40,287 nucleotides of DNA from a bacterium UBP13_UBA5359 (GCA_002410925.1 DHPR01000008.1:1-40287), one strand, 5' to 3'; shown: positions 11,001-26,949, counted from the stretch's first letter. The notes: generated by a model from the letters alone, not told the origin. Translations and numbers: made by a program.

Positions 11001-11760
11001 CGAGCTGCTCTCCGAGGAGCGGGGCAAGATAGAGCTGTTGGAAGGAGAACGGCAAAAAGGAATTACCGACCGGTCGCAAGAGGAGCTTGATCGGGCTCTG
11101 ATTAAACTGGTCGCCGACCAGAAGGAGCTTCAACAGGACATTGGCGGCATCCGGCAGAGACTCAAAGATAATGAAAAGCTGAAGGAAGAGCAGCAGGGCA
11201 GATTACGGGCTATCAAGCTGCAACAGAGAGAGTGCTCACGGTGGGATTTGCTGCATGAAATAATCGGTTCGGCCGATGGCAAAAAATACCGTAATTTCGT
11301 TCAGGGCTTGACTCTTGAGATGGTGACCTCTTATGCCAACCGGCAGCTGCAGAAGATGACCGATCGCTATCTGCTGATTCGGGATGAGACCCAACCTTTG
11401 GAGCTCGATGTTATCGATAATTATCAGGCAGGAGAGATCCGGTCCACCAAGAATCTCTCCGGTGGCGAGAGCTTCATTGTCAGCCTCTCATTGGCGCTTG
11501 GCCTCTCTCACATGGCCGGTAAAAATATTCGAGTCGATTCTCTATTCCTGGATGAGGGCTTCGGCATGCTGGATGAAGAAGCCTTGGACACGGCGCTTGA
11601 AACTCTCGCCGGCCTGCAGCAGGATGGCAAATTAATCGGTATGATTTCACATGTGCCGGCTCTCAAAGAGCGTATCGGCACTCAAATCCAGGTTATTCCT
11701 CAAACGGGAGGAAGAAGCAGGATTTCAGGCCCGGGGTGCAGGAAGTGCCCGGTCGATTGA
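8080..11760 (+). CDS. sbcC: Exonuclease SbcCD subunit C (Rad50-like ATPase)
   Basis: Walker A GPTGAGKS, long coiled coil, Zn-hook CPLCGS, signature LSGGE, Walker B LFLDEGFG. Confidence 0.95.
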   Translation: MRILQVRFKNLNSLAGEWEIDFMHPSFTADGIFAITGPTGAGKSTILDALCLALYGRTPRLHKVTKSGNEIMSRQTGECYAEVIFETQTGRYRCHWSQRRAHKKPDGELQSPKHEMADDASGRIFEAKIRGVAEQIEAVTGMDFDQFTRSMLLAQGGFAAFLQAAPDERAPILEQITGTEIYSKISVRVHERRFDERKKLDMLQAELAGMQLLGEDEELQLNTGLEQKIRQDEELNEQISMKNRAIAWLGGIIRLEAEIRELQLQKQAWQSRQDAFAPEQGRLGRAIQALELAGEYAGLISIRQEQENDRHDHKECLEIFSGCERDVKQAKEAMKEVSGRLGAVKAKQKEALPVIRKVLELDLKIRAKEDPVKAAEEAIAEQQSSLDRLRSGQNKDCADLEDKQKDFAELLKKLGETKADEGLVEYLAGIGEKADALKNLHRQHNDTIEEINKAEGQAARAKQLWKEEAGNLEKEERALLSRRKELAQKQEELRHILQDRELSSWHDSVSSLAAQNVLIDKGNEAAQILVKSREAIDKLTKDREALNNKKSFIEEQHRALAEKKGLQARELSLLERELFLLKKIEDFKEARRQLQDGRYCPLCGSREHPFAEGNIPVPDEMEQQLGTARADLERTNEAIAELMVTQAEVNKDIEQALAGQRECSEKAFEAELLIARICSELFLDAAAIDPGEKLKQLRIENEKELKHAVGIVQGVEGMEKKINELREALDKAKEEVTKAEHKTQTALHGMDSVAQLLERLRKEAKRLLSQQEESVNILQRDISGYGVQITSLDSLDYIQEQLTARRDQWVLRRQQKMELEQKIGALDMRTRHQAELMRGSEAEIRKQRELLDTMLREQESLRRERYEVFGDRNPEAEEERLAKAVEAAEKELETARQEVEARTRTFSELKSKIEELEKSIDKRDAKLKPAEEAFQKRLEGLGFIDEEDFAAASLPEEERNALAQKARALADEKTELLSEERGKIELLEGERQKGITDRSQEELDRALIKLVADQKELQQDIGGIRQRLKDNEKLKEEQQGRLRAIKLQQRECSRWDLLHEIIGSADGKKYRNFVQGLTLEMVTSYANRQLQKMTDRYLLIRDETQPLELDVIDNYQAGEIRSTKNLSGGESFIVSLSLALGLSHMAGKNIRVDSLFLDEGFGMLDEEALDTALETLAGLQQDGKLIGMISHVPALKERIGTQIQVIPQTGGRSRISGPGCRKCPVD

Positions 11761-11800
11761 TACTCCTCGCATATGGTATCCATTTCAGCCTACCGGGGGC

Positions 11801-11829
11801 TTGACTCCCCGCCTTTGCCGTGTTACTAT
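11801..11829 (+). promoter_or_regulatory. Sigma70-type promoter of the prepilin-metal ABC operon
   Basis: TTGACT-17 bp-TACTAT with an extended -10 TG. Confidence 0.65.
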
Positions 11830-11925
11830 TCTTAAATTGGTGTTACAACGCATCGGAGAGTATTTGCAGAACAATTTGATAGAATGCAGGAAGATCGTGT
11901 TAACGATTATGCGCAGGAGGATAAA

Positions 11926-12699
11926 ATGATATCAAAACCGCATATACGACGGCAGAACGAGAGGATATCGGGGCTTTGTGAATATGGCAGGGTGCGTAGA
12001 AGGGGGTTGCCGGGCAGGGGCTTTACGCTGATCGAACTTTTGGTAACAATAGCGATCATATCTATACTGGCTGCTATCCTCTTTCCTGTCCTGGCGCAGG
12101 CCAGGGATAAGGCCAGGGCGGCTACCTGCCAGAGCAACTTGAAGCAGCTTGGATTGGCGTTTGAAATGTACTCTATGGATTATGATGAGACTTATCCTTG
12201 CAATCCGCAGTGGAAGGGACGTCTGGATTCTTATGTGAAAAACAAGGAGATTTACAAATGCCCGAATCGAACGGAGTTCCCATGGCATTATGGACAAGGT
12301 TATAATGTCGGCTGTGCTTCGGCCAGCCCGGCCGTGCCTGGCTTTGCAGGGGCAAGCGCGGCGGCTGTCGTCAATCCTGCCGATAAGATATTGGTGGCTG
12401 AATGGGGCGCTCCTGCTACCGGAGTGGGCGGTTGCAATGCCGGACCTCCCTGTGGCCCCACCGGCTTGCTGGGCGGAGGTTCCACCAGTCACTGGGCTGT
12501 CTGCCGGACGCATTCCGGCGGCTCCAATCTGCTTTTCGGCGACGGACATGTGGCCTGGCTTAAGCCGGATATCTATCATAGCAATACCGACCATATCGAT
12601 AATAACGGCCAGCCTGTCGTCTCCGGCGGCGGGGAAGCGGTGGCTGTGCCGGAGAGCACCTGGCGTAAATACTGGGATACGAGTTACGGAGGAATATAG
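11926..12699 (+). CDS. Prepilin-type N-terminal cleavage/methylation protein (DUF1559-like, C-terminal H-X9-DG motif)
   Basis: [32 protein letters not shown]...CQSNLKQLG and [23 protein letters not shown]. Confidence 0.9.
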
Positions 12700-12702
12700 G
12701 GT

Positions 12703-13551
12703 ATGAAGCGCATCAGAGCTGCACTGGGGATAGCAGCGGCACTCTTCCTGTTGACCGTAATCTTTATCCGATTTGAAGAACGGGCGGCCGGGCTTAACGT
12801 AACGGCTACCACTACCATGATGCGGGCGGCCATCAACGATATAGGTGGAGAACGAGTAAAAGTGAACGTGCTTATCCCGGGAGGGAGTTGCCCCGGGCAC
12901 TATGATATCAGGCCGGGCGATATCCGGACACTGAAGCAAAGTGCCCTCTTCTTTACGCACGATTATGAGGGATTCGTGCCGCGCTTGTGCGCTGCCGCAA
13001 AGCTACCGGAATCACGGGTGATGCGGATACCGGTGTCAGAGAACTGGCAATTGCCGGATGTATATGTCAGGGCAGCGCAGGCGGTTGCCGCCGCTCTATC
13101 CAAAGTGGATGCTGCCGGGCGCTCGGAGTATCTGCAACATTTGAAAGCGGTGCAAGATAAAGCCGGCGCTGTTGAGGCCGAAATTCGCAAGCAGGCCCAA
13201 AGAGAGGATTTTGGCAGCGTCGCTGTAATCTGCTCCGAGCAACAGGCTGCTGTGCTGCGCTGGATGGGGTTCAAAGTAGCGGCCGTCTACGGCAGGCCGG
13301 AGGAGTTTACACCGTCGGGAATGCACCATCTTGTCAGGATGGGTAAGGATAAAAAGGTTGAACTGGTGGTTGATAATCTGCAAAGCGGGCCTGCCGCCGG
13401 TAGAGAATTGGCTCGGGAGCTCGGAGCCCGGCATCTTCTTCTATCCAATTTTCCGGACGGCTTTGATAATACCGAGACATGGGAGAGGACTGTGCTGGAG
13501 AATATGAAGCGCATCGTGACGGCGCTGGGCGGGCGCAAAGATGGGAAATGA
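12703..13551 (+). CDS. Metal ABC transporter substrate-binding protein (ZnuA/TroA-like, atypical ligands)
   Basis: N-terminal hydrophobic segment, VTATTT...IGGERVKV.VLIPGGSCPGHYD, and operon position before the ATPase and ABC-3 permease. Confidence 0.8.
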   Translation: MKRIRAALGIAAALFLLTVIFIRFEERAAGLNVTATTTMMRAAINDIGGERVKVNVLIPGGSCPGHYDIRPGDIRTLKQSALFFTHDYEGFVPRLCAAAKLPESRVMRIPVSENWQLPDVYVRAAQAVAAALSKVDAAGRSEYLQHLKAVQDKAGAVEAEIRKQAQREDFGSVAVICSEQQAAVLRWMGFKVAAVYGRPEEFTPSGMHHLVRMGKDKKVELVVDNLQSGPAAGRELARELGARHLLLSNFPDGFDNTETWERTVLENMKRIVTALGGRKDGK

Positions 13552-14272
13552 TGCTTACAGCATTTTGATAAAGGATATCTGCACGGCATATCACGGTTTG
13601 CCGGTGTTGGAGAGCTTCTCACTGCAGGTGCCGGAGGGGGAACTGCTGGGAGTGTTCGGGCCGAACGGAACGGGTAAGAGCACGCTAATAAAGGTCTGTC
13701 TGGGTTTGGTGCCGGTGGCATCGGGCGAAGTAAGGATATCCGGTTACAGGATGAGCAGAGAGGGCATATCCTTTATTAGAAAATTGACCGCTTATGTGCC
13801 ACAGAGCTTTGATGTCGACAGACGAATGCCGGTGACGGCCGGAGAAGTAGTGATGATGGGGCGTTTCGGCCGGATGGGCCTTTTCAATCGGATTGGCCCG
13901 GGCGATCAAGCCGCCGCCGACGATGCGCTGAATATGCTTGGCGTTAAGCATCTGGCCGGGCGGACTTTCGGCAGGCTTTCCGGTGGTGAAAAACAGCGGG
14001 TGATCGTTGCACGTGCTCTGGCGCAGGAGCCGAAAATATTATTGATGGATGAGCCTACTAATTCGCTCGATTGGGAGTCAAAGAAAAGGATATGCTCTCT
14101 GATACGCGAAGTACATGTGGAGCGAAAGCTGACCACTCTCATCGTGTCGCATGATATTGATCTGCTGGCCGATACATGTGATCGTATCATGCTGATGGAG
14201 CGGGGACATATTATCGGTGCAAGGGATCCATCGGAGTTCAGACACTGTTGCCGCGGGCAGAGGCATTCTTGA
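13541..14272 (+). CDS. Metal ABC transporter ATP-binding protein (ZnuC-like)
   Basis: GPNGTGKST, YVPQ, LSGGEKQRV, LLMDEP, VSHD. Confidence 0.92.
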   Translation: MGNDAYSILIKDICTAYHGLPVLESFSLQVPEGELLGVFGPNGTGKSTLIKVCLGLVPVASGEVRISGYRMSREGISFIRKLTAYVPQSFDVDRRMPVTAGEVVMMGRFGRMGLFNRIGPGDQAAADDALNMLGVKHLAGRTFGRLSGGEKQRVIVARALAQEPKILLMDEPTNSLDWESKKRICSLIREVHVERKLTTLIVSHDIDLLADTCDRIMLMERGHIIGARDPSEFRHCCRGQRHS

Positions 14273-14308
14273 TGTATAATAGAAATTGATGAAAGAGAAA
14301 GGATCCGA

Positions 14309-15259
14309 TTGACGGTGCTGGAACTGCTTCAGGACGATTTTATGCGGCATGCTATTCTGGCTACTTTTCTGGCCGGGGTGACCTGCTCCTGCGTGGGGGT
14401 GCTTGTAGTTACCATGCGAATTTCCTTTATAGGCGTCTGCATGTCGCATGCAGCCTTTGCCGGAGCGCTTCTGGGGATTATCCTGGGTTTAAATCCTACA
14501 GTTGTGGCCCTGATATTTACTCTTCTTGCGGCTGCCGCACTCGGCCCGCTTGCTGATAGGGGTAATTTTAGTCCGGATACTTCACTGGGCATAATTTTCT
14601 CTTCTACCCTTGGAATAGCCTTTCTGCTGCTCAGCCTTGTGCCCGGTCCCAAGACCGAGGCCTTAGGATTGCTATGGGGCAATGTTCTTACGGTTGGAAA
14701 AATAGATATTATTATCCTGGCTGCGGTCGCGTTGGCCATAATCGTGCTGTTGAGGCTGTTTTTTAAAGAGGTTCAAACGGTGGTTTTTAACCGGGAGATG
14801 GCTCTGGCTTCCGGCATTCCGGCCACTGCCGTATTCTACGGTATCCTTATCTGCAGCGGGCTGACGACAGTGGCCTCTCTTAATGCCATCGGCGGACTGC
14901 TGGTGTTCAGTTTAATCATCAATCCCGCCGCTGCCGCCTATCAAATAGCTTCTGATCTGCGCAGCATGTTTTTTATATCCGCCTTGTTCGGAGTGCTGTC
15001 GGGATGGGGTGGCCTATGGCTTTCATATCTGCTCAACTTACCCAGCGGAGCACTGATTATTCTATGCTCGACACTGCTCTTTTTTGGTGCGGTCGCCTTT
15101 TCATCTAAAAAGCGTTCGTGGCCTGCAAAAGCTGTGAGCGACGAGCCGAGATCTGAAATTTGTCAAGGAGGCAAGCTTAACCCTGAAGCAGGCTTGCAGG
15201 GCAAGCCTGAAAACGATAGCCGGCAACCGTGTTCTAAGAGCGCATTAATGGAGGAGTGA
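14309..15259 (+). CDS. Metal ABC transporter permease (ZnuB/ABC-3)
   Basis: Multiple TM helices; SHAAFAG, LLWGNVL, GGLLVFSLIINPAAAA. Confidence 0.92.
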   Translation: MTVLELLQDDFMRHAILATFLAGVTCSCVGVLVVTMRISFIGVCMSHAAFAGALLGIILGLNPTVVALIFTLLAAAALGPLADRGNFSPDTSLGIIFSSTLGIAFLLLSLVPGPKTEALGLLWGNVLTVGKIDIIILAAVALAIIVLLRLFFKEVQTVVFNREMALASGIPATAVFYGILICSGLTTVASLNAIGGLLVFSLIINPAAAAYQIASDLRSMFFISALFGVLSGWGGLWLSYLLNLPSGALIILCSTLLFFGAVAFSSKKRSWPAKAVSDEPRSEICQGGKLNPEAGLQGKPENDSRQPCSKSALMEE

Positions 15260-15262
15260 CAA

Positions 15263-15868
15263 TTGAAGCATAGTAAATTTTTCGATAATCTGGCTGAGAA
15301 ATGGGATGCCATGGAGCGGGAAGATATAGGGCGGCGTCTGTCCAGAGTGGTGGCGGAGGCGGCTGTTCATCCCGGACAGCATATTCTGGATGTAGGTACG
15401 GGAACGGGTGTTCTTATACCTTATTTGCTGGAAGCTATGCAGGAGGAGGGGCATATCCTGGCGATAGATATATCTTCAGGTATGCTGGAGGTGGCCGGCC
15501 GCAAAGCCTTTCCTGCCAATGTCGATTTTTTGCAGGCAGATATAGCGGAGAGCGGATTGCCGGAGAACCGATATGACCGGATATTCTGCAATGCGGTTTT
15601 TCCGCACTTTACCGATAAATCGAAGGCTCTATCGGAGATACGGCGTTTGCTGAAGCCTGGCGGAAGGCTGGTAATTTCACATCCCATCGGCCGGGAGGCG
15701 GTAAACAGCTTGCATCAGGGTGCCGGCGGGGTGGTAGCGGAGGATAGGGTGCCGTCGGCGCAGGTGATGATCTCTCTGCTTGAGGCGGCAGGAATGATTG
15801 ATGTACTGGTTGTCGATGAACCGAATTTTCATCTGGTGCTTGGTGATAAAGCGGTCGCCGGCAGTTAA
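15263..15868 (+). CDS. Class I SAM-dependent methyltransferase
   Basis: ILDVGTGTG motif I, AIDIS..ML, LKPGGRL. Confidence 0.9.
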   Translation: MKHSKFFDNLAEKWDAMEREDIGRRLSRVVAEAAVHPGQHILDVGTGTGVLIPYLLEAMQEEGHILAIDISSGMLEVAGRKAFPANVDFLQADIAESGLPENRYDRIFCNAVFPHFTDKSKALSEIRRLLKPGGRLVISHPIGREAVNSLHQGAGGVVAEDRVPSAQVMISLLEAAGMIDVLVVDEPNFHLVLGDKAVAGS

Positions 15869-15874
15869 CGGCGT

Positions 15875-15903
15875 TTGCTCCTTGCATCTATTTACGCTAT
15901 AAT
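15875..15903 (+). promoter_or_regulatory. Sigma70-type promoter of the Ehr operon
   Basis: TTGCTC-17 bp-TATAAT. Confidence 0.55.
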
Positions 15904-16015
15904 AAACGTTGTTCGGGTGTGCAAACTTAAAACACTCTAAACGACAGGACGTGCAAGTAGTCGCCTATCCATTGTACGGGGCGAGTTATCGCTTGTATGT
16001 TGGGATAGGTAAGGT

Positions 16016-17815
16016 ATGTCTTTCATTCCATGGTTCCTCGGCGATGCGGGGTTTACCTTTACGGTAGATCCTTTGAGCTGCTGGTTTCTGGCTATTATAG
16101 GTGCGGCCGGTCTTCCGGTCCTGATATTTGCTCCCGGCTATCTGCAACATCTGCGCCATCGTGTTTCACTCAATCTGGTATGGGTTGCTCTGATTCTATT
16201 GATGATCAGCATGGCGGGAGTGGTAATGGCGGCCAATGCCATACTCTTTTTGGTAGCCTGGGAAGTTATGTCTCTCTCTTCCTTTGCTCTGGTTACTGCT
16301 GATCATGAGCAGCGTGACAACCGCCGTGCCGCAATTATTTATCTGGGCGCAACACGGGCAGGTACGGCCTTTCTGATGATCGGGTTTCTCTGGACGCATC
16401 ATCTTACCGGCAGCTGGGTTTTCTCCGAATGGAGTGTTTCCGGGGCGGCGGCCCTGGTTCCCGCTCTGCTGATCTTTGTCGGACTGGCGACCAAGGCCGG
16501 ATGCTGGCCTTTTCATTTGTGGTTGCCCATCGCTCATCCGGCCGCACCGGCGCCGGTATCTGCACTTATGAGTGGCGTTATGATAAAGACGGCTATTTAT
16601 GCCATGATACGGCTTTTTATCCTGGATAACCACTTTGTTCTTCCTCTTCTTGGACCTATCCTGTTGATTCTGGGTGCGATATCTGCCTTTTGGGGGGTTA
16701 TCTTTGCTCTGCTGCAGCATGACCTTAAACGTTTGCTGGCTTATCATAGTGTGGAGAATATCGGCATCATTCTCATGGGGCTGGGTGTGTCGCTTCTTGG
16801 ACAGCGGTATCATCTTCCTTTGCTGGAGCAGCTCGGCCTGGCGGCGGCATTGTTTCATACGCTCAATCACGCCATTTTCAAGAGCTTGCTCTTTCTGGGG
16901 GCGGGTGCAGTGGATGCCTGCACGCATTTACGGGACATCGAAAAACTCGGTGGTCTGGTTCATCGCATGCCATGGACTACGGGAGCCTTTGTAGCGGGCA
17001 GCGCCGCCATTTGTGCTCTGCCGCCGCTTAACGGCTTTGCCAGCGAATGGCTGCTTTATCAGGGATTTTTCAACTTGGCCATGGATGCTCCGTCTGCCGG
17101 GTTGCGGTTTGGAGCTCTCTTGCTGATGGGATGGCTGGCGCTCGTTGGCGCTCTGGCTATCGCCTGCTTTGTCAAGGCTGTGGGCGTGGTCTTCCTGGGC
17201 AGCCCGCGCAGCCGGCGGGCTGCACGGGCCACGGAGGCCGGCAGAGGAATGGTTGTTGCTCAGGTGTTGCCGGCATTGATGTGTATCGCTCTCGGGGTGG
17301 CTGCTCCCGCTGTCCTGGGCCAGTTGGGCAGGATAACATCCCGGCTTGGTGATCCATCACCGCTTTATCATGCCTGGACAATTCCGCTTGCACTTATTGC
17401 TCTCCTGTTAGCCTGCACTGCAGGAGGCTTAGCTATGTGGATGGCGGCCTTGTCCCGTTTGCTTCCGGCCCGGCGATTTATAACCTGGGAATGCGGCTTC
17501 GGTAATCTGGGGCCAAGAACGCAGTATACGGCAACCAGTTTTGCCCAGCCGATCTCGCGTATCTTCGGTGCGGTCTACAGCTACACGGTAGATATCAATG
17601 TCAAGGGGCGAAATCGTCGTTATTTCCCTGATAAAGTTACGGCTGAAACTGCACATGAAGCATATCTGGAAACAAAGGTGTATACGCCGTTGCTGCAGAG
17701 CATCAAGCGGATGGCAGGTATCTTTCTTATGCGTTTGCAAGCAGGCAGCATACATCAATACCTTATATATATGGCGCTGATGCTGGGATTATTGCTCTGG
17801 GTGGGGGTGAGTTGA
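16016..17815 (+). CDS. hyfB: Ehr/hydrogenase-4-like antiporter subunit (HyfB-like)
   Basis: WEVMSL, KAGCWPFHLWLP.AHPAAPAPVSALMSG, KRLLAYHSVENIG, HAIFKSLLF, PPLNGFASEW, TWECG. Confidence 0.88.
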   Translation: MSFIPWFLGDAGFTFTVDPLSCWFLAIIGAAGLPVLIFAPGYLQHLRHRVSLNLVWVALILLMISMAGVVMAANAILFLVAWEVMSLSSFALVTADHEQRDNRRAAIIYLGATRAGTAFLMIGFLWTHHLTGSWVFSEWSVSGAAALVPALLIFVGLATKAGCWPFHLWLPIAHPAAPAPVSALMSGVMIKTAIYAMIRLFILDNHFVLPLLGPILLILGAISAFWGVIFALLQHDLKRLLAYHSVENIGIILMGLGVSLLGQRYHLPLLEQLGLAAALFHTLNHAIFKSLLFLGAGAVDACTHLRDIEKLGGLVHRMPWTTGAFVAGSAAICALPPLNGFASEWLLYQGFFNLAMDAPSAGLRFGALLLMGWLALVGALAIACFVKAVGVVFLGSPRSRRAARATEAGRGMVVAQVLPALMCIALGVAAPAVLGQLGRITSRLGDPSPLYHAWTIPLALIALLLACTAGGLAMWMAALSRLLPARRFITWECGFGNLGPRTQYTATSFAQPISRIFGAVYSYTVDINVKGRNRRYFPDKVTAETAHEAYLETKVYTPLLQSIKRMAGIFLMRLQAGSIHQYLIYMALMLGLLLWVGVS

Positions 17816-18738
17816 TGAATTCGCTCTTTTTGCCTCTATTTCATCTTATAAATCTCCTCCTCCTGCCGCTGTTGCTGATGGGGATAATTCGTAAAGTTAA
17901 GGCGGTTATGCAGAACCGTACCGGTGCGCCGTTGCTACAGCCCTTCTATGATATGGCAAAATTCATTCGCAAGGCGGAAACTATCAGCGGGAATGCCGGT
18001 TGGATATTTGTCTGGGCCCCACGTGTGGGATTGGCGGTAGCGGTTATAGCGGCAATCCTGGTGCCCTGGGCCGGCGTGCTGCTGCCGCCCGGCTGGGCGC
18101 CCGCAACCAATTTCCTGCTGATGCTTTATCTGCTGACTTTAGGTAAATTTTTTACTATGCTGGCGGCGCTTGATACCGGCTCTGCTTTTGGCGGATTGGG
18201 AGCCAGCCGGGAAGCCACCATTTCCATGTTAGCAGAGCCTGCCCTTATCATTGCTCTCGGTGCGCTTGCGCTGGGAGCAGGAAGCACCGATCTGATGACT
18301 ATCTACTCTTCTCCGGCCAGCCCTTTTATTGCTCTTCTGGCGGGAGCAGGTCTGGTAATAACGGCATTGGCAGAGCTTTCACGAATGCCGGTGGATGACC
18401 CTACCACTCATCTGGAATTGACCATGGTGCATGAAGCGATGATTCTGGAATACAGCGGACGCAGCCTGGCGATGATAGAATATGCAACGGCATTGCGTGC
18501 ATGCATATTCTTCGGCCTGGCTGTACAGACTCTTCTGCAGGCCTGGCCGGCTTTTCATGCTTTGCCTTTGCTCTTGCATTATGCTGCAAGCCTGTTAGGG
18601 CTGGTGATGCTGGGTATATCGGTTGCTGTGGCGGAAGGCATCCTGGTGAAGCTAAAGTGGCGAAGTGTGCCTAATTTTTTAACCTTTGCCGTAGTGTTAA
18701 GCCTATTGGCTGCTGTGATTGCGGCTGTTCAATCTTAG
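17815..18738 (+). CDS. hyfC: Ehr/hydrogenase-4-like membrane subunit (HyfC/HycD, NuoH-like)
   Basis: RKVKA.MQNR.G.PLLQP, DTGSAFGGLGASRE, RMPVDDPTTHLELTMVHEAMILEYSG. Confidence 0.88.
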   Translation: MNSLFLPLFHLINLLLLPLLLMGIIRKVKAVMQNRTGAPLLQPFYDMAKFIRKAETISGNAGWIFVWAPRVGLAVAVIAAILVPWAGVLLPPGWAPATNFLLMLYLLTLGKFFTMLAALDTGSAFGGLGASREATISMLAEPALIIALGALALGAGSTDLMTIYSSPASPFIALLAGAGLVITALAELSRMPVDDPTTHLELTMVHEAMILEYSGRSLAMIEYATALRACIFFGLAVQTLLQAWPAFHALPLLLHYAASLLGLVMLGISVAVAEGILVKLKWRSVPNFLTFAVVLSLLAAVIAAVQS

Positions 18739-18776
18739 CATAGCCGAGCCTGGAGAATAACAGAGGAGAAAATCGA

Positions 18777-19421
18777 ATGAACCTTTCACAGATAGATATA
18801 TTGGCGGCAGGTGTTGCTGTGCTGGCTGTTTGGATGTGCGGAGTAACACGCCTGAAGATGCAGGTATGGGGCTTGAGCGGCCAGACAGTGCTCTTGTCCG
18901 GTATTTGTGTGCTGCTGGGGCGGGAAGAGGCTGCGACGGGGATGTTTATTCTGGCGCTGGTGGTATTTTCCATCAAAGCGGTCGGCATTCCGGTCTTTCT
19001 CAGTAAAGCAGCTGAACGCATGGATATCACACGGGACAGAGGCATTTATAATAACTCTACGCAAGCTCTGCTGATGGGATGCGGATTATTGATTCTGGGG
19101 TATTTTATGACGCCTAAAGTTGCTGTTCCAACGATGATGAATCAAGGGACGGCCGGTATGTCTCTGGCGCTGATCTTTATAGGTATGCTGCTGATGGTTA
19201 CACGACGATTGGCACTCAGCCAGGTTGTTGGATTTCTCACCATGGAGAACGGTATCTTTCTCTACGGTCTTACTCAGACAAGCGGTATGCCGCTGTTGAT
19301 GGAAATGGGGATTCTCTTTGAGGCGCTTGTCGGTGTGCTGATAGCCGGTTTGGTCATGTTCAGAATCAACCGCAGCTTTGAGCACATCGATGTTACCGAT
19401 ATGAGGGGGTTACGTCATTGA
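18777..19421 (+). CDS. hyfE: Ehr/hydrogenase-4-like subunit HyfE
   Basis: KAVGIP, QVVGFLTMENGIFL, MPLLMEMG; operon position. Confidence 0.85.
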   Translation: MNLSQIDILAAGVAVLAVWMCGVTRLKMQVWGLSGQTVLLSGICVLLGREEAATGMFILALVVFSIKAVGIPVFLSKAAERMDITRDRGIYNNSTQALLMGCGLLILGYFMTPKVAVPTMMNQGTAGMSLALIFIGMLLMVTRRLALSQVVGFLTMENGIFLYGLTQTSGMPLLMEMGILFEALVGVLIAGLVMFRINRSFEHIDVTDMRGLRH

Positions 19422-20866
19422 ATCCATTTTTGCTGATAAGCGTACTGCCGTTGTTGATGGCATGTCTGGGTCTTTTCCCTCGTGCGGCACGCTGGCTGCC
19501 GCGAGCAGGCGCTATCATTCTTCTGCTTCAGCTTCCGGTGGTGGGTTGGGTATGTCTGCCCGCCTTCTCCGGCGCTACCATTGCCTGCGGCGGCTTTCTT
19601 ATGGATGGTATAGGAGCTGCCTTTACGATTATTACCACTCTGGTGGCGGCAGCCGCTCTTGTTCAGTCGGCTTTGCTGTTGCCCGCCGAGCGGCTTGAAG
19701 ATAGTAAAATGACGGATAGGCGATTCTGCCTGTTTTATACGCTGTCAGGTATATTTATCCTGGCGGTGTACGCCGTGCCCCTCGTTCAGCATCTCGGCTA
19801 TCTCTGGATTGCCGTTGAGGCCACCACGCTGATATCGGCGCCGCTTATCAATTATCATCGCAGCCGTAATTCTCTGGAAGCTACCTGGAAATATCTCTTG
19901 TTATGCAGCGTCGGCATAGCTTTCGCTCTCTTCGGCACGGTGATTATTTTTGCGGCTCAGCATGCTTTCACAAACGGCGGGACCATGATGGCGAGCGAAT
20001 TGGTTGCGCATGCCGGTACCCTTGATCCACGTTTGCTACGTCTGGGATTTGTCTTCTGCCTGCTGGGCTACGGGACCAAGGCGGGCATCTTTCCGCTACA
20101 TAACTGGTTGCCTGATGCCCATAGTGAGGCACCATCCGCTGTGTCAGCCATGCTTTCCGGCGCCTTGCTCAACTCTGCTCTGGTGGCTGTCTGGAGACTA
20201 TCTCAGATAATGGCCGCCGCCGGCCAAAGTGGATTATTGCGTCAACTGCTTGTTCCGGCCGGGGCAATAACTGTGATTGCCGCCAGCATCATGCTGGTGC
20301 GCCAGCATGATTTGAAGCGTATGCTGGCTTATTCCAGCGTCGAGCACGCCGGGCTGCTGACACTGGCTATCGGTATTGGATCGGGAAAGATTTTTATTTT
20401 ACATGCTTTTAACCACAGTCTGGTAAAGGCGGCTCTCTTTCTTTTAGCCGGAGGCGTGACGTATGCTTATGGAACCAAGGCATTATCCAGGCTGGGAGGA
20501 ATTATAAAGAGAGCGCCCGCCTGGGGAATCGCGTTGATGGTAGCCGGTTTTGCTGTTGCCGGCAGTCCACCCTTCGGCACGTTTATCAGTGAATGGCTCC
20601 TGCTTCGCGATGCATTTGCCGCAGGAGAAGTGCTTGCAGTTGCAACCGTGGCGATAGGATTGGCCATTACCCTTATTGCGATTACAACTCATATGGGGCG
20701 GGCAGTATTCGGCAGAGGGCATGCTCCTGTAAGAGATGTGGCTGTGCGCACCTGGACATTGACGCCGGCTGTATTGCTGGCTCTCTCTCTGCTTGCAGGA
20801 GTGGCTATATCTCCGCCGGCGATGCAGATGCTCTCTGTTCTGGCAGGGCAGGGGGGACAGCCGTGA
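19418..20866 (+). CDS. hyfF: Ehr/hydrogenase-4-like antiporter subunit (HyfF-like)
   Basis: WIAVEATTL, SLEATWKY, GYGTKAG.FPLH.WLPDAHSEAPS, KRMLAYSSVEH. Confidence 0.88.
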   Translation: MNPFLLISVLPLLMACLGLFPRAARWLPRAGAIILLLQLPVVGWVCLPAFSGATIACGGFLMDGIGAAFTIITTLVAAAALVQSALLLPAERLEDSKMTDRRFCLFYTLSGIFILAVYAVPLVQHLGYLWIAVEATTLISAPLINYHRSRNSLEATWKYLLLCSVGIAFALFGTVIIFAAQHAFTNGGTMMASELVAHAGTLDPRLLRLGFVFCLLGYGTKAGIFPLHNWLPDAHSEAPSAVSAMLSGALLNSALVAVWRLSQIMAAAGQSGLLRQLLVPAGAITVIAASIMLVRQHDLKRMLAYSSVEHAGLLTLAIGIGSGKIFILHAFNHSLVKAALFLLAGGVTYAYGTKALSRLGGIIKRAPAWGIALMVAGFAVAGSPPFGTFISEWLLLRDAFAAGEVLAVATVAIGLAITLIAITTHMGRAVFGRGHAPVRDVAVRTWTLTPAVLLALSLLAGVAISPPAMQMLSVLAGQGGQP

Positions 20867-22371
20867 AACTGGTAAGTGATAAATTTGAAATAATTGTCGA
20901 AAAGCCGGCTATGCTGGCGATCGCTGCCCGGCATTGGCTGAATCAGCCCGGCCGGCGTTTTGGACATCTGACAGCCAGAGTTTGTGCCGAAAAAAATCTG
21001 GTTATCGAGGTCTTGCTGCTCGATACGCGAACTGGTGGAGGCGTTATTCTGACAGCACCGCTGCCTGATGGAGAATCTGAATATCCTGCACTCTCTCCGG
21101 AAATACCGGCTGCTCACTGGGCGGAGCGCGCTGTCGGGGATTTCTTCGGCCTGCGGGCCTGCGGCCATTTGCGCTGGAAGAGCTTGATACTGCATCATGA
21201 TGTATGGCCTGATGATTTCGCTCCACTGGCACCGCAGAGTATTGCACCTCGGGAACCTTATGCCTTTCTTAAGGTGTCCGGCGAGGGTATTCATGAGATT
21301 CCGGTAGGACCCATACATGCCGGAATTATCGAGCCGGGTCATTTCCGATTCAGTTGTGTGGGTGAAATCATAGCCAATCTCGACATCCGTCTCGGTTATC
21401 AGCATCGCGGGATAGAAAGGCGGTTAACGGAGATTCCCTGGCAACAGACCTCATATCTGGCTGAAGCAGTCAGCAGCGATGCAGCGGCCGGCAATGCGCT
21501 TGCTCACGCTGTAGCGATGGAGCAATTGATGGATATATCACCATCACCACGAGCGCAAACATTGCGTACCATTGCACTGGAAATCGAGCGTTTAGCCAAT
21601 CATATAGGAGATATTGGAGCGCTATGCGGCGATATTGGCTATAGTGCGGGTGCTGCTCTCTTTCCACCCATGCGAGGGGCTGCTCTGGCGCTGGGAGAAC
21701 TACTGACAGGAAATCGTCGTCAGCATTACTATATCAGGCCGGGCGGAGTGGCTCGTGATCTGAATGATGAACGAAGAAGGGACATGCTTCAGGCGCTTTC
21801 GAATATAAAGCTTCGTTTGCAGGAAATCCTGCCGCTGGTTTTTACCAATCCTGCCGTTATCGAGCGTATGGAGGGTACGGGACGCCTTGCGCCCGAACTG
21901 GCTCGTGATTTCGGCCTGGTCGGCCCGGCGGGACGCGCTTCCAAGGTTGAGTATGATGTTCGAAGCTGCTATGCCCATGGTCTTTATCCTGAATTTGCTC
22001 CCGTGCCTGCCGGTCGTGAAGCAGGCGACGCTTTGGCGCGGGCGCAAATACGCGCCGATGAAATCCAGAGTAGTTTATCATTACTCTCCAATATGCTGGA
22101 AAGCATTCCCGGCGGCTCTGCTATGGTTGATTGCCATGACAGGGCTTTGGAGCCGAACAGAGTAGGCATCGGCATTGTGGAAGCCTGGCGTGGTGAACTT
22201 ATACACTGGATCACCGCTGACGATACCGGTGCCATATCACGTTATGCCGTTAAAGATCCCAGCTTCAATAACTGGACCGGCCTGGCGATTGCAGTACGTG
22301 GAAATCTGGTGGCCGATTTCCCGCTGTGCAACAAGAGCTTCAACCTGTCGTACAGCGGCAATGATTTATAG
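20863..22371 (+). CDS. Ehr large subunit (HyfG/NuoCD-like, no NiFe ligands)
   Basis: GTG overlaps the hyfF stop. VGPIHAGIIEPGHFRF, HRGIE, EAWRGE and C-terminal DFPLCNKSFNLSYSGNDL are present; no CxxC L1/L2 motifs. Confidence 0.88.
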   Translation: MKLVSDKFEIIVEKPAMLAIAARHWLNQPGRRFGHLTARVCAEKNLVIEVLLLDTRTGGGVILTAPLPDGESEYPALSPEIPAAHWAERAVGDFFGLRACGHLRWKSLILHHDVWPDDFAPLAPQSIAPREPYAFLKVSGEGIHEIPVGPIHAGIIEPGHFRFSCVGEIIANLDIRLGYQHRGIERRLTEIPWQQTSYLAEAVSSDAAAGNALAHAVAMEQLMDISPSPRAQTLRTIALEIERLANHIGDIGALCGDIGYSAGAALFPPMRGAALALGELLTGNRRQHYYIRPGGVARDLNDERRRDMLQALSNIKLRLQEILPLVFTNPAVIERMEGTGRLAPELARDFGLVGPAGRASKVEYDVRSCYAHGLYPEFAPVPAGREAGDALARAQIRADEIQSSLSLLSNMLESIPGGSAMVDCHDRALEPNRVGIGIVEAWRGELIHWITADDTGAISRYAVKDPSFNNWTGLAIAVRGNLVADFPLCNKSFNLSYSGNDL

Positions 22372-22462
22372 TCCTGCCATAATCATCTATGGCAAGAGAG
22401 CCTGAAGCTATGGTTCGGTTGCCGAGCCTTTGAGCGTATTTACATCTTTTGGAGGCTGAATT

Positions 22463-23209
22463 ATGAGCAATCCGCTTCTGACAATATTAAAAACAGGTAT
22501 TATCACACAGAGAGAGGTATTTCCTGACCTGTCCGATGATGCTGATGGAATGCCTGCTCTTACCGCAGCACCGTGTGCCGGTGTCGCTTGCGGGCGCTGT
22601 ACGGCTGTCTGCCCTACCAAAGCTATCAACCTTTCAGGCGATATTGTTACGCTGGACCGGGGACGTTGCCTGGGCTGCTCCTCCTGTGTCAGGAGATGCC
22701 CTTCAGGAAGCATTATGCACGATCGCTCTACCCGGACGGCCGTGAGCAGGCGTGAGGAGCTTATTCTTACCAATCAGACCAGCGATAAGGCTGCGCCGGC
22801 TCAACCGCGATTGCCGTTCCGAAAATCGCTGCATATCCGTGAAGTTTCCACCGGCGATAATGCCGCCGACTTGGAAATTATCGCCTGCACCAATGCAATC
22901 TTCGATATCGCCCGCTTTGGGATACACTTTGTTGCTTCGCCTCGCTTTGCAGATGCTCTCCTTGTTACCGGTCCTGTCGGCAAGGCTATGCAGGAGCCTT
23001 TGCTGCGCTGTTATGATGCTATGGCTGAGCCTCGCCTGGTGATTGCCGTCGGTGCCGGCGCCATCAGCGGCGGTTTACATAGCGGAGGTTATGCAGAGGC
23101 TAATGGTGTGGACGACCTGCTACCCGTTTCCAGCTATATCCCCGGAGATCCTCCGCATCCATGGAGCATTATTCACGGGATACTTTTGGCCATGGGAAGA
23201 ACGGAATGA
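22463..23209 (+). CDS. Ehr small subunit: 2x[4Fe-4S] ferredoxin domain fused to a NuoB/HyfI-like domain lacking its Fe-S cysteines
   Basis: CAGVACGRCTAVCP and CLGCSSCVRRCP, then RKSLHIREV, RFGIHFVASPRFAD.LLVTGPV and IPGDPP. Confidence 0.85.
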   Translation: MSNPLLTILKTGIITQREVFPDLSDDADGMPALTAAPCAGVACGRCTAVCPTKAINLSGDIVTLDRGRCLGCSSCVRRCPSGSIMHDRSTRTAVSRREELILTNQTSDKAAPAQPRLPFRKSLHIREVSTGDNAADLEIIACTNAIFDIARFGIHFVASPRFADALLVTGPVGKAMQEPLLRCYDAMAEPRLVIAVGAGAISGGLHSGGYAEANGVDDLLPVSSYIPGDPPHPWSIIHGILLAMGRTE

Positions 23210-23393
23210 TTCGAATTTAAATTTGCTTGCTTGCTTATGAAACATTTTCCCGGTGCTCGTTCGTATATTACTATGTTATGCTGCGCTGCGAAAGCTCAAT
23301 AACGATCAGGGCGATAAAGATTCTGCAGGGTATGTTTTCTCGGCCATACGCACCGAGCGCAGGATCCATATCGCGGGAAGGCGAAGGGCTGTA

Positions 23394-24683
23394 ATGGTAT
23401 CAAGATGCAGATACTTCTTTTCAGGCATAGTCCTGTCGATTCTTTTATCGGTGTCCGTTGTCGTGCAAGCAGACGTCGATAGCAGCAAAGGCCTCTCTTT
23501 ACAGCAATGTATAGAGATAGCCATGCAGAATCAGGATGATATTTTGATAGGGGGAAATACGGTAACTGCGGCTACAGAGAGGCAAAAGCGTACTCTGAGC
23601 GATTATTATCCTCGTGTTACCACTCAATACTCGACCGCTCTGGCGGAATCCGGAGGCCTCAATACCAGAAAGGCGGATGGTCTCTCCGTATCTGTTTCGC
23701 ACGATTTCTATGACGGAGGAATCAGAGAGGCTAAAGCGCATGAAGCGGCGGCCGGACTGGCGCAGAAGCTCTTTGCTCTGGACAGAACACGGCAGAAGGT
23801 TCTTTACAATGTAACCCGAGAATATTTCTTGCTGCTTCAAGCCCAGCATCTGGCAGAGGTACGGCACACCCAGGTGAAGTATCTTGAAGGGCAGCTGGCC
23901 ATGATAAGTACTCGCGTCCAGTTGGGTGCTGCAGCACGGGTTGATACTCTTCCTGTTGAGGCGCAGCTCTCCAATGCACGGGTAGATCTGCTGGAGGCGG
24001 AAAATACTATTAGGACCTCGGCTATCCAACTACAGAATGCAATGGGACTCCTTCCGGATCCCGATTTTTCCATTATGGAAACCGCTGAGCCGGCTATCAT
24101 CGCTGTTCGCTCTGTGGAAGATTATGTAACTATGGCGTTATCTGAGCGCCCTGATCTCCAGGAAGCGGAAGCCGGCATCAAGTCTGCCGAAGCCGGGGTA
24201 GAAAGGGCCAGGCTTTCTTTACGGCCGCGGCCTATTCTTTCCGGCTCTTACGATAACTCTTTTGATGGCAAGGATGAATTACGCATCACCGGCGGCATTG
24301 CTTTTAATCTCTTTGATGGAGGCAGCAATCGTGCGACATATCGCGAAGAGGTTGCCAATAGATCAAGTGCTGAGCTGCGCGTTGCGCAGTTGAAAAAAAC
24401 TATCCGGTCAGAGGTGCGCCAGGCATATCTAAATCTTACCTGCGCCGAAGAGCGAATGGCAGCCGCCGACCTCAGCCTGAAAGCGGCACGGAAGAATCTT
24501 GAGGCTCAGGAAGGCCGGTACAAGCAGGGATTGGCTATTACTCTGGATTTGCTCAATGCGCAACTGGAGATAACCACTGCTCAGAGGAATGCAGTACAGG
24601 CGCGCTATGATTACTATCTTTCTATAGCGCAGCTTGAATATGCCGCAGGCAAGCAGGGAGGTTTGTATGAGAAAGCCGACTAA
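23394..24683 (+). CDS. TolC-family outer membrane efflux protein
   Basis: Signal peptide; two OEP repeats (YYPRV...YDGG; PRPIL...LFDGG); RYKQG...LDLLNAQ. Confidence 0.88.
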   Translation: MVSRCRYFFSGIVLSILLSVSVVVQADVDSSKGLSLQQCIEIAMQNQDDILIGGNTVTAATERQKRTLSDYYPRVTTQYSTALAESGGLNTRKADGLSVSVSHDFYDGGIREAKAHEAAAGLAQKLFALDRTRQKVLYNVTREYFLLLQAQHLAEVRHTQVKYLEGQLAMISTRVQLGAAARVDTLPVEAQLSNARVDLLEAENTIRTSAIQLQNAMGLLPDPDFSIMETAEPAIIAVRSVEDYVTMALSERPDLQEAEAGIKSAEAGVERARLSLRPRPILSGSYDNSFDGKDELRITGGIAFNLFDGGSNRATYREEVANRSSAELRVAQLKKTIRSEVRQAYLNLTCAEERMAAADLSLKAARKNLEAQEGRYKQGLAITLDLLNAQLEITTAQRNAVQARYDYYLSIAQLEYAAGKQGGLYEKAD

Positions 24684-26187
24684 GAAAAAACGTCTTATAA
24701 CCGGTGCATTGATTGCACTGCTGGTAATCATCGTTGTTGCGGTGGCAATGCGGCGCAACCATAATAACAAAGGGCAAATGGCGGTGCGTACGGAGGCAGT
24801 GAGCCGAGGTATGATCGTTTCCAGCATTTCCGCTAACGGCGTGCTTAAACCCTTGACTACCGTGGAAGTAAAGTCCAATGTCGGGGGGCAGGTAATTCAA
24901 ATGGCCGTTGATGAGGGAGATGTTGTTCGTGCCGGGCAGTTAATCGCCCGCATCGATCCCTCCGATACCCTGACCAGCTTGCAGCAATCGGAAGCAGATT
25001 ATGCCGGCGCCTCAGCCAAAGTTCGCCAAGCTAAGAGCCAAGCTGATGTACAGCCCAGACTGACGGGTACGGCTATCAAGCAGGCGGAGAGCTCTCTGGC
25101 CTCAGCACAGGCGGCGCTGAAGCAGACCCAAAGCGCCTTGATACCGCAAAAAATCGCCTCTGCCCAATCAGCCTATAATCAGGCTAAAGCTGCTTGTGAT
25201 CAGGCAGAGAAGAGCCTTAAACGGCAAAAGGCGCTGTACGAGCAGGGCTTTGTCGCCGGAAGCGTAGTTGACGATGCTCAGGAAGCGGCAGCTTCGGCCA
25301 GGGCCCAATTGGAAGCGGCTCAAAGCAGATGGAGCACCGTTAAGGAGGAAACGGCGCAGGAGCTTAAGGCCGCTCAGGCCCGGGTACAGGAAGCTTCGGC
25401 CGCATTGGAAGCGACCAGGGCAAATGCCTATCAGGTAGGTATGAAGAGGGAGGATATTGTTCAGGCTCAGGCGGCATTGCAGCGCGCCCGGGCATCGGTG
25501 GATAACGCGCGGACACAATTGAGATACACCTCGATTTATGCGCCGAGGTCAGGTATAGTGGTTAGTAAATATGTGGAAGAAGGCTCCATTATTATGGCTG
25601 GACGAGCCTCGAATGCAGGAGCAGGCTCCGGCGTCACCATCATCGATATAGCGGATGTTATCCGCATGCAGGTGGAAGTCAATGTGGATGAAGCCGATAT
25701 AGGAGAGATTCGTCAAGGCCAGCCGGTACGAATTTCAGTGGATGCTTATCCTGACGAGCGCTTCAGAGGAAGGGTAACCAGGATTGCTCCTCAGGCTGTT
25801 GCGGAGCAGAATGTTACCACCATACCGGTGACGGTAGAGGTATCCGTCCGGGATGACAGGCTGAAGCCCGGCATGAACGCTACCTGCGATTTTATTGTTG
25901 AGCGCAAAGAGAATGCTCTTCTGGTGCCGAACAAGGCGGTCAAAGAGAGCGCCGATGGAACGATGGTAACGGTTTTGCAGCATGGTGAGCAGGTGTCGTG
26001 CCGGGTAAAGACCGGTATCTCTGACGACAGGAATACCGAGATTATCAGCGGTCTGCAGGAGGGTGATCTGGTGGTAATGCCTGCAGGCATGGCATTCGGC
26101 AATGCCGGAGCAGGCAGAAGAAATCAGACCTCGGGGAACGCACCGCGACGCAGTATGCGACGGGGCGGTCCGCCCAGGATGTTCTGA
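24667..26187 (+). CDS. MacA/HlyD-type periplasmic adaptor (membrane fusion protein)
   Basis: N-terminal TM; EVKSNVGGQV..V.EGD.V..GQL, long helical hairpin, IYAPRSG, LKPGMNA. Confidence 0.9.
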   Translation: MRKPTKKKRLITGALIALLVIIVVAVAMRRNHNNKGQMAVRTEAVSRGMIVSSISANGVLKPLTTVEVKSNVGGQVIQMAVDEGDVVRAGQLIARIDPSDTLTSLQQSEADYAGASAKVRQAKSQADVQPRLTGTAIKQAESSLASAQAALKQTQSALIPQKIASAQSAYNQAKAACDQAEKSLKRQKALYEQGFVAGSVVDDAQEAAASARAQLEAAQSRWSTVKEETAQELKAAQARVQEASAALEATRANAYQVGMKREDIVQAQAALQRARASVDNARTQLRYTSIYAPRSGIVVSKYVEEGSIIMAGRASNAGAGSGVTIIDIADVIRMQVEVNVDEADIGEIRQGQPVRISVDAYPDERFRGRVTRIAPQAVAEQNVTTIPVTVEVSVRDDRLKPGMNATCDFIVERKENALLVPNKAVKESADGTMVTVLQHGEQVSCRVKTGISDDRNTEIISGLQEGDLVVMPAGMAFGNAGAGRRNQTSGNAPRRSMRRGGPPRMF

Positions 26188-26217
26188 AAAAGCCTGACTA
26201 AAGGAGATGCCCGGGAT

Positions 26218-26949
26218 ATGATAAGCGTCAAAAATCTGCAAAAGACTTATTATATGGGAGATGTTACCGTTCGTGCACTTAAAGGGGTTTCCCTGGAGGT
26301 TAAAACGGGTGAATTTGTGGCTATTATGGGCCCGTCCGGCTCCGGTAAATCTACTTTCATGAACATCGTCGGTTGTTTGGATAAGCCTACGGAAGGTTCG
26401 TATATCCTTGATCATCAGGAAGTGGCCGTAATGGATAACGATGAACTGGCGCTGGTGCGCAACCGGAAGATAGGCTTTGTTTTTCAGACCTTCAATTTGA
26501 TTTCACGCCGTCCGGCGGTTCGCCAGGTAATGCTGCCGCTGCTTTACAATCCGGAGGTTTCCGATGATTCTCAGGCTATGGCTATAGCTGCTCTGAAGAG
26601 GGTGGGGCTGGGCGACCGTATTCATCATAAACCCAACGAGCTCTCGGGCGGGCAGCAGCAGAGAGTGGCCATTGCCCGGGCGCTGGTAAATAATCCTCCT
26701 GTTATCCTGGGAGATGAACCTACGGGAAACCTGGATACGCGGACGAGTGAAGAGATCATGGCTATATTTCAAAGCCTGCATGCGGAAGGGAAGACGGTTA
26801 TCATTGTTACTCACGAAAGCGATATTGCCAGGCATGCACAACGTATTATACGTTTCAAGGATGGACATATAATTTCCGATCAGAAGGTGGATACGCCTCT
26901 TAATGCGTATGCTGAACTGGAGAAACTGCCGCCGGAGGAAGAAGAATGA
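26218..26949 (+). CDS. MacB/LolD-type ABC transporter ATP-binding protein
   Basis: [43 protein letters not shown]. Confidence 0.95.

Follow-up and report, generated by a model that had tools for sequence, protein, structure and literature searches.

A DUF1559 pilin-like gene at the head of a probable NikR-regulated nickel importer operon

Few families without an assigned function are as large in Armatimonadota and the Planctomycetota-Verrucomicrobiota group as DUF1559, which is seldom named in the literature searched. Why should a gene for such a pilin-like protein stand first in an operon for an inner-membrane metal importer? This question is raised by a 40,287-nucleotide stretch of DNA (hereafter the window, the whole of which was analysed) from the bacterium UBP13_UBA5359 (GCA_002410925.1 DHPR01000008.1:1-40287). 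In it, five genes, encoding a DUF1559 prepilin-like protein (hereafter the pilin), a substrate-binding protein, an ATP-binding cassette (ABC) transporter ATPase, a permease and a methyltransferase, are arranged head to tail on the + strand at 11926-15868. An initial annotation of the window had proposed that the pilin captures a metal for this importer. Our analysis points to a NikR-repressed nickel-uptake operon, the first product of which would be an extracytoplasmic capture and delivery protein, most likely displayed on a pseudopilus, and this reading as a whole is given a probability of roughly 0.55. Its parts differ in strength: it is very likely that the operon belongs to the NikR regulon, and probable that the pilin works in nickel acquisition; that it works from a fibre falls somewhat short of even odds.

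The operon and its candidate NikR operator

The candidate NikR operator, GTGTTAC-N13-GTGTTAC, is located at 11820-11846 (+ strand) and overlaps the -10 box of a sigma-70-like promoter match at 11801-11829 (+ strand; TTGACT, 17 nucleotides (nt), TACTAT, with TG before the -10 box; 9/12 matches), the -10 hexamer of which, 11824-11829, lies inside it. This box has one match in the window and none in 100 shuffles of the window, even with one mismatch allowed. It is also the only pair of GTG[CT]TAC/GTA[AG]CAC half-sites at a spacing of N13-14 in the 2,254,220-base genome, where single half-sites number 190. In the parts of Rodionov et al. (PMC545781) available to us, the NikR box predicted for delta-proteobacterial nickel importers is GTGTTAC-[N13/14]-GTAACAC, and the half-sites are reversed in one species. 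The half-site and the N13 spacing at the operon equal those of the published box, but the two halves are direct repeats here, whereas the published box is an inverted repeat. The one NikR of the genome is encoded at G000:C3:64592-64819 (PF08753, 111 bits, plus a ribbon-helix-helix domain), with no transporter beside its gene. A lone GTGTTAA is found at 11897-11903 of the window.

The promoter match at 11801-11829 is credible because the candidate operator overlaps it. It had been described as a single sigma70 promoter of the operon; the site exists, whereas its singleness is not shown by the promoter scan alone, since such matches are no commoner than in shuffles (7 within 11500-16200 versus 4.2 +/- 1.8) and some of the others lie inside the pilin gene.

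The pilin gene (11926-12699, 257 amino acids (aa)) starts at an ATG preceded, at a distance of 5 nt, by the Shine-Dalgarno sequence AGGAGG (11915-11920); an alternative in-frame ATG is present upstream at 11884, and the reading frame is open from there too. It is followed after 3 nt by the gene for a ZnuA-family substrate-binding protein (12703-13551, 282 aa; PF01297, 95.4 bits), the open reading frame (ORF) of which is overlapped by 11 nt by that of the ABC transporter ATPase (13541-14272, 243 aa; PF00005, 109.8 bits). After a gap of 36 nt comes an ABC-3 family metal permease with a TTG start (14309-15259, 316 aa; PF00950, 193.1 bits), and after another 3 nt a methyltransferase (15263-15868, 201 aa) assigned by class-I S-adenosylmethionine (SAM)-dependent methyltransferase families. 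Families were called with Pfam and NCBIfam profiles at curated cut-offs, and all five genes score above them; PF01297, PF00950 and the ABC ATPase, each above cut-off and all in one operon, constitute the gene set of a Cluster A-I importer. No terminator-like site was found at any gene junction of the operon, and the intergenic interval that follows the methyltransferase (15869-16015) contains no convincing terminator, its fold not being unusual (z -0.91). Gene order, spacing and families therefore bear out the tight operon of prepilin, metal ABC importer and methyltransferase that the initial annotation had described. Its statement that neither a TonB-dependent receptor nor pilus-assembly genes occur in the operon likewise agrees with the Pfam and NCBIfam naming of the operon and its neighbours.

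Orthologs, their neighbourhoods and the metal

The pilin forms a tight orthogroup, whereas generic DUF1559 paralogs are alike in little beyond the N-terminus. At least 120 database relatives were listed, all at least 53% identical at E <= 1.2e-72 and with a coverage of about 87% or more in all but one; the named relatives among the matches listed are mostly Armatimonadota. Because an alignment-based contig scan was swamped by the generic N-terminal pattern (1 of its 76 loci, L002 with 71% identity, looked like a true ortholog), the C-terminal 199 residues of the pilin were used as the query in whole-genome searches. An ortholog was detected in 61 of 401 Armatimonadota genomes (E <= 1e-40), with one copy in 60 of them and two in the other, which gives 62 loci. 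A second phylum, that of G007 (record label Candidatus Omnitrophota), has orthologs in 36 of 65 genomes, with one match each (E <= 1e-30), and the small phylum of the source itself in two of its three genomes, the third being 87% complete. A search of 301 genomes from the phylum to which G405 belongs (label Planctomycetota; E <= 1e-25, at most 10 candidates scored per genome) did not detect the orthogroup, and four other genomes reached through loci (G405-G408) gave no ortholog match at E <= 1e-20.

The flanks of these orthologs were compared over up to 8 kb on each side at the 62 Armatimonadota matches, G007 and G001, and over up to 7 kb at 20 second-phylum matches. Neighbouring ORFs were clustered, recurrent clusters were named by Pfam, and presence was re-scored by tblastn. 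An importer is found at 48/62 Armatimonadota loci, as a Znu-type operon (binding protein, ATPase and permease) at 7 and as energy-coupling factor (ECF)-type parts, on the same strand as the pilin, at 41. In the second phylum, the pilin, binding protein, ATPase, permease and methyltransferase genes follow one another in this order at 19 of 20 loci, and the twentieth has only 106 nt downstream. The neighbourhood survey that had been suggested as a check thus finds pilin orthologs linked to metal importers in both phyla.

The same neighbourhoods also contain the regulator and its box. At 17 of the 62 Armatimonadota loci, nikR is directly upstream of the pilin gene, and at 1 more it is downstream. 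A strict bipartite box occurs within 750 nt upstream of the pilin at 30 of these loci, and a half-site only at 17 more; the 30 loci fall in 45,724 nt of upstream sequence, whereas the rest of the loci, 664,073 nt, contains the box 7 times. The most enriched upstream 7-mers are GTGCTAC (34/65 regions versus 5 in the control) and GTGTTAC (26 versus 2), and in 34 of 35 pairs of neighbouring half-sites the distance is exactly 20 bp. The bipartite box was also detected at 12 of the 20 second-phylum loci, and nikR comes after the methyltransferase at three of the 20. In total, at least one nickel or importer feature is present at 53/62 Armatimonadota loci, and the linkage of the orthogroup to nikR and importers extends over three phyla. 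A fusion of DUF4198, which we take to be the NikK family, with TrmO_N is encoded upstream of the pilin at five loci (L119, L130, L133, L147 and L151; e.g., L130:6650-7909), directly adjacent to it in four. No Fur/Zur-family gene was found among the recurrent neighbour clusters of the ortholog loci. Because nikR is present at 17+1 loci, a NikR-type box at 30/62 loci and the same box over the -10 of the operon in the window, the metal is most probably nickel rather than another metal.

In the ECF module beside most Armatimonadota pilins, the S component belongs to PF12822 and is not CbiM; the other parts are an FmdE-domain protein, CbiQ and an ABC ATPase. This module (e.g., L129:8558-9154, L136:2311-2754 and L150:6210-6959) looks like a NikR-linked ECF system that has so far not been described. 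The methyltransferase closes the operon at 6 of the 7 Armatimonadota Znu-type loci (at the remaining one the contig breaks off within its ORF), at L174 and at 19 of the 20 second-phylum loci (altogether L112-L114, L116, L117, L121, L174 and L179-L198 except L187). Its best NCBIfam rows are CpaM and the DVU_1556 family, both below cut-off.

In a rough neighbour-joining tree of the pilins (midpoint-rooted, no support values), the Znu-type pilins of the phylum of the source and of the second phylum group together, and the Armatimonadota Znu-type copies branch close to the base of a clade whose other members are ECF-type. From this placement it appears that the pilin was kept while the importer type changed; since importer type tracks pilin phylogeny in the same tree, the linkage is partly inherited rather than independent. 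Six loci with a right-handed beta-helix protein (PF13229; L133, L138, L141, L142, L144 and L158) have neither a NikR box nor an importer. Their pilins form a derived group in the tree, for which reason the function of these six orthologs may have shifted.

With regard to the importer itself, the binding protein is far below the cut-offs of the named equivalogs (MntC, 57.9 versus 400; AztC, 27.1 versus 350; ZnuA, 18.9 versus 268). The best NCBIfam rows for the importer genes (MntC, AztA/AztB and SloB) are all below cut-off, as in the case of the ATPase, for which the best match is AztA (171.8 bits versus 220). C63-P-G-H66, E89, H244, N225 and N249 are invariant in the binding-protein subfamily (29 sequences, i.e., the product of 12703-13551 and 28 orthologs), and this set may mark a nickel-specific branch of the ZnuA-like family. 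Around the presumed positions of the canonical His/His/His-or-Glu/Asp ligand set of ZnuA-type binding proteins, C63-P-G-H66, E89 and H244 are the only invariants. Since that set appears not to be kept throughout and the named equivalogs score so low, a zinc or manganese transporter label is unsafe, and the ZnuA-like importer here should not be annotated as such.

The pilin-like protein and its paralogs

The pilin exceeds the cut-offs of PF07596 (37.9 bits versus 23.3; profile positions 2-36 of 268 only, i.e., the N-terminal part), TIGR04294, the H-X9-DG family (25.1 versus 19), PF07963 (31.7 versus 21.2) and TIGR02532 (33.4 versus 16.3). The GspG equivalog TIGR01710, which matches residues 31-95 only, scores 45.5 bits versus a cut-off of 88.85. 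Its class III signal reads G32|F33-T-L-I-E37, with G at -1, a hydrophobic N-terminal helix and Glu at +5. Of 36 copies examined, 34 read G|FTLIE; the other two (GFTLVE and GFTLTE) still have Glu5. The H-X9-DG motif is H196-X9-D206-G207-H208. From F33 onwards, the mature protein has 7 Cys and 6 His, compared with 4 Cys and 3 His in the paralog at 38571, and three motifs were located in it, a ten-residue one from residue 169, SHWAVCRTH from 188 and YHSNTDH from 217; on recount, these residue numbers and motifs agree with those given earlier. In an AlphaFold model (pLDDT 88.3, pTM 0.80) used for a wide structural search, the first 15 rows are all pilins or pseudopilins, with modest Z values of 5.5 to 3.1; the best is 6xxd_A (Z 5.5, 122 aligned, root-mean-square deviation 3.4), and EpsG (4lw9_A) has Z 4.5.

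Conservation was assessed in 80 full-length orthologs, and 34 aligned paralogs of the same genome served for comparison. C68, C112, W160, C170, G173, P175, W190, H196, H218, S219, R247, W250 and D251 are invariant in all 80 orthologs, and D206 is kept in 79, H208 in 74, D225 in 63 and C193 in 55. In the paralogs, C68, C112 and H196 are present in 34/34, G207 in 32, N201 and D206 in 31 and H208 in 30; C68 and C112 are thus common to the whole DUF1559 family and not specific to this copy. The segment with C170 (a CNAGPP insertion) is missing in 20 of the 34 paralogs, and that with Y-H218-S in 28. The residues specific to the subfamily are C170, H218-S219, W160, W190, R247 and W250-D251. C170 has no invariant Cys partner among the 80 orthologs, which makes it a candidate free thiolate ligand. 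C170, H218 and the family-wide histidines together are candidate metal ligands of the pilin head.

PF07596 matches occur at 37 places in the 2.25 Mb genome. As a paralog control, four flanking ORFs were named for 32 DUF1559 copies outside the window. A sugar-type regulator (GntR/LacI-binding-domain, AraC or DeoR) is directly upstream of 21 of the 32, and a glycoside hydrolase, ConA-like lectin domain (LamG) or carbohydrate-binding module (CBM) is found no more than two ORFs downstream of 13. An ABC or ECF part was present among the four flanking ORFs of none of the 32, and a NikR-type bipartite box at no other DUF1559 paralog of the genome. The second DUF1559 copy of the window fits the glycan layout, with AraC at 37521-38384 and CBM_4_9 at 39402-40157. 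Judging from these gene orders, the usual family layout here is a regulator, a pilin-like gene and substrate-specific genes, which the nickel copy appears to parallel with NikR and the importer.

The genome also encodes T2SSE ATPases, four secretins and two prepilin peptidases. TonB-dependent receptors, a count of which had been proposed, number one. The machinery and the single receptor are consistent with a pilus-borne pilin that replaces such receptors, without showing such a role. A CbiM-family gene without a strict NikR box (G000:C19:101461-102111) is a second candidate nickel/cobalt route, and no NiCoT (PF03824) was detected at a genome completeness of 98.4%.

Proposed role, rival explanations and related systems

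In the proposed mechanism, when nickel is plentiful, the NikR encoded on contig C3 would bind GTGTTAC-N13-GTGTTAC over the -10 box, and all five genes would be off. The prepilin would be cut by a prepilin peptidase and held via its N-terminal helix, with the head domain outside the cytoplasm; in this domain C170 and H218, which are specific to the subfamily, accompany H196, D206 and H208, which occur family-wide. The pilin would serve as an extracytoplasmic capture and delivery component for nickel or a nickel complex, acting before the inner-membrane importer, which is predicted to comprise the ZnuA-like binding protein, the ABC-3 permease and the ATPase. Display would most likely take place on a short pseudopilus built by shared type II secretion/type IV pilus machinery, and the pilin would take the slot of TonB-dependent receptors or of NikK/NikL in other NikR regulons. 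The gene order, the families, the operator-like site and the linkage to nikR and importers are shown by the sequences, whereas we infer that the head domain binds nickel, that the protein is built into a fibre and that the outer membrane is crossed in this way.

A number of observations weigh against this proposal. The nikR gene is not adjacent to the operon but is encoded on another contig, and the half-sites are direct repeats here, as are 21 of 34 half-site pairs in relatives, versus the inverted repeat of the published NikR box. The CbiM-family gene means that the operon need not be the only nickel/cobalt route of the genome. Next to the operon, a hydrogenase-4/Ech-like complex (16016-23209) has a large-subunit-like ORF (20593-22371) which, read by eye, seems to be without [NiFe] cysteines. 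Nine of the 62 Armatimonadota loci are without any nickel feature; three of these have less than 350 nt of relevant flank, L132 and L173 have long flanks with nothing in them, and five stand before a beta-helix protein (the sixth beta-helix locus also has DUF4198 upstream). In the binding protein, the presumed second and third canonical ligand positions appear not to be kept, nor does a 'PHxW'-type second site; the substrate may therefore be a complex and not the free ion. Structural matches of the pilin model are weak, with a best Z of 5.5 and, by Foldseek against the PDB, no match at E <= 0.001. Finally, the Cys and His residues singled out in the initial annotation fared unequally. C170, H196, H218 and H208 are conserved as described above, but C130 (25/80), C176 (19/80), H189 (13/80) and H223 (20/80) are poorly kept, C92 occurs in only 4/40 rows and the position of H121 is mostly Y. 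H196, D206 and H208, being also present in sugar-linked paralogs, are not specific to nickel. Of that annotation's link to metal capture, the association with an importer stands and the metal is narrowed, most probably, to nickel, whereas the ligand set as first drawn holds only in part.

Could the same regulon and the same metal be served without any fibre? The N-terminus would then be an inner-membrane anchor and the head a periplasmic nickel-binding accessory, or metallochaperone, which passes nickel on to the binding protein or to the S component of the ECF module in a role like that proposed for NikK/NikL. This main rival appears rather unlikely to us, although the pairing of the pilin with two unrelated inner-membrane importers would suit a periplasmic helper, and the operon is without an assembly gene. 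There are also precedents in the portions of two papers available to us: Legionella pneumophila PilA2 promotes growth at low iron without PilD, PilT or piliation (PMC13170364), and extra periplasmic components were proposed for nickel ECF importers by Rodionov et al. (PMC545781). On the other hand, the class III signal described above is almost uniform, G|FTLIE being shared by all but two of the 36 copies and Glu5 by every one. This residue of pilins is tied to fibre assembly and is unneeded for a mere anchor. The DUF4198 gene, presumably NikK-like, beside the pilin at five loci suggests that the pilin is not simply its substitute, and the sugar-linked paralogs, which have no importer nearby, argue for a step other than handover to an inner-membrane transporter.

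That the pilin is co-regulated with the importer but stands outside uptake, as an adhesin that attaches to surfaces containing nickel, as a sensor or as a passenger gene retained through inheritance of the operon, is improbable. Such a reading would draw on the six orthologs beside a beta-helix protein without importer or box and on the partly inherited linkage seen in the tree, and the binding or transport role of the pilin is itself read from sequence. However, the linkage outlasts the change from one importer type (Znu or ECF) to the other and spans three phyla, the near-single-copy pilin is usually the first gene behind the operator, and its subfamily-specific Cys and His residues are invariant. 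More improbable still is an operon that imports zinc, manganese, cobalt or iron, with the GTGTTAC repeat bound by another regulator or by none. The gene families are indeed those of Zn/Mn/Fe importers, the best NCBIfam rows (MntC, AztA/AztB and SloB) belong to that circle although all are below cut-off, and the half-sites repeat in direct and not in inverted orientation. Yet nikR is directly upstream of the pilin at 17 loci, downstream at one Armatimonadota locus and after the methyltransferase at three in the second phylum; the published NikR box has the same half-site and N13 spacing; no Fur/Zur-family gene is among the recurrent neighbour clusters; and the binding protein has an invariant Cys-Pro-Gly-His instead of the canonical Zn/Mn ligands.

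The proposed nickel-uptake operon and its pilin can be compared with several known systems. The operon resembles nik(MN)QO and nikKMLQO (Rodionov et al. 2004, PMC545781, as far as the part of the paper available to us goes) in a candidate NikR box with the GTGTTAC half-site and N13 spacing before the uptake genes, in an ATP-driven importer with extra exported components of unproven role and, in the relatives, in an ECF-type partner module with CbiQ. Unlike in those systems, the importer here is of the ZnuA/ABC-3 type and not CbiM/NikM, the extra part is a prepilin-type DUF1559 protein and not NikK/NikL, the half-sites here and in relatives are mostly direct repeats, and the S component of the relatives is PF12822 and not CbiM. 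With the Cluster A-I importers (ZnuABC, MntABC/PsaABC, TroABCD and AztABC) the operon shares the Pfam families of binding protein, ATPase and permease in one operon. It departs from them in equivalog scores far below cut-off, in the C-P-G-H motif, E89 and H244 that appear to replace the canonical ligands, in regulation that looks NikR-type and not Zur/MntR, and in pilin and methyltransferase genes as fixed members. Helicobacter FrpB4 is a NikR-regulated TonB-dependent outer-membrane nickel receptor. The pilin would occupy a similar slot, that of a substrate-specific envelope component under NikR ahead of the inner-membrane importer; FrpB4, however, is a TonB-driven beta-barrel, whereas a pilin-fold protein would here account for a presumed passage through the outer membrane.

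Among pilins, GspG/PulG/EpsG and the type IV pilins share with this protein the class III signal G|F...E5 and the long N-terminal helix, and its head aligns to PilA4, EpsG, PilV, ComP and PulG. Unlike in GspG/PulG/EpsG, its head is roughly double the size and carries the H-X9-DG motif and the insertions of the subfamily; its TIGR01710 score is far below cut-off, and its family has 37 matches in 2.25 Mb, the genes of which sit with substrate-specific regulators and not with assembly genes. In the parts of the sources available to us, Synechocystis PilA1 is linked to manganese acquisition (PMC5634550), and this case and that of Legionella PilA2 (PMC13170364) are alike in that a type IV pilin aids transition-metal uptake. 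Those are general major pilins, whereas here a dedicated, apparently metal-regulated paralog is found inside an importer operon, and the effect of PilA2 is independent of piliation. The fibres of planctomycete crateriform structures bind dextran and are implicated in uptake, a link that the authors call speculation in the part of their paper available to us (Boedeker et al. 2017, PMC5394234). Similar to the display proposed here, these are pili-like fibres binding a substrate that reaches the periplasm, and DUF1559 is expanded in such phyla and accompanied by glycan cassettes here; unlike it, the substrate is a polysaccharide and not a metal, and that part of the paper names no DUF1559 protein. 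In the literature searched (subscription journals outside scope), nothing linked 'NikR' with 'pseudopilin', and papers with 'nickel uptake' and 'pilin' concerned other subjects, judged by their titles.

NikR-controlled importers are known, and it is the class of accessory component, a DUF1559 pilin-like protein, that appears to be new. A near-single-copy pilin of three phyla behind a nickel operator-like site turns the vague label 'pilin-like' into a testable nickel-capture hypothesis, and a small ligand, the point-mutant targets C170 and H218 and a known regulator make the nickel copy a tractable entry to mechanism. Should the pilin prove to supply the importer with nickel, bacterial nickel acquisition would gain a new type of component, and the case for pilin-like proteins, not TonB-dependent barrels, in the substrate intake of these bacteria would be strengthened. 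More speculatively, DUF1559 proteins could be exchangeable heads, each with its own substrate, of an outer-envelope uptake machine driven by a pseudopilus; they would take the role of TonB receptors in Armatimonadota and allied phyla, with each copy under its own regulator (sugar regulators for the glycan copies and NikR here); we regard this generalization as doubtful.

The operon is preceded by SbcCD genes and followed by the hydrogenase-4-like membrane complex. This complex was considered as a sign of local nickel demand and dropped, because its large-subunit-like ORF, read by eye, shows no CxxC pair where the [NiFe] ligands would be; the complex is possibly of the Ehr type, with no nickel. 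A gene for HypA is present elsewhere in the genome. Further downstream, 23253-28163 is an operon for a TolC-like OEP, an HlyD-type adaptor and a MacB-type ABC exporter, and this operon confirms a diderm envelope. On the opposite strand, a radical-SAM protein with a BATS domain (HydG/ThiH-like) is encoded at 28168-29589.

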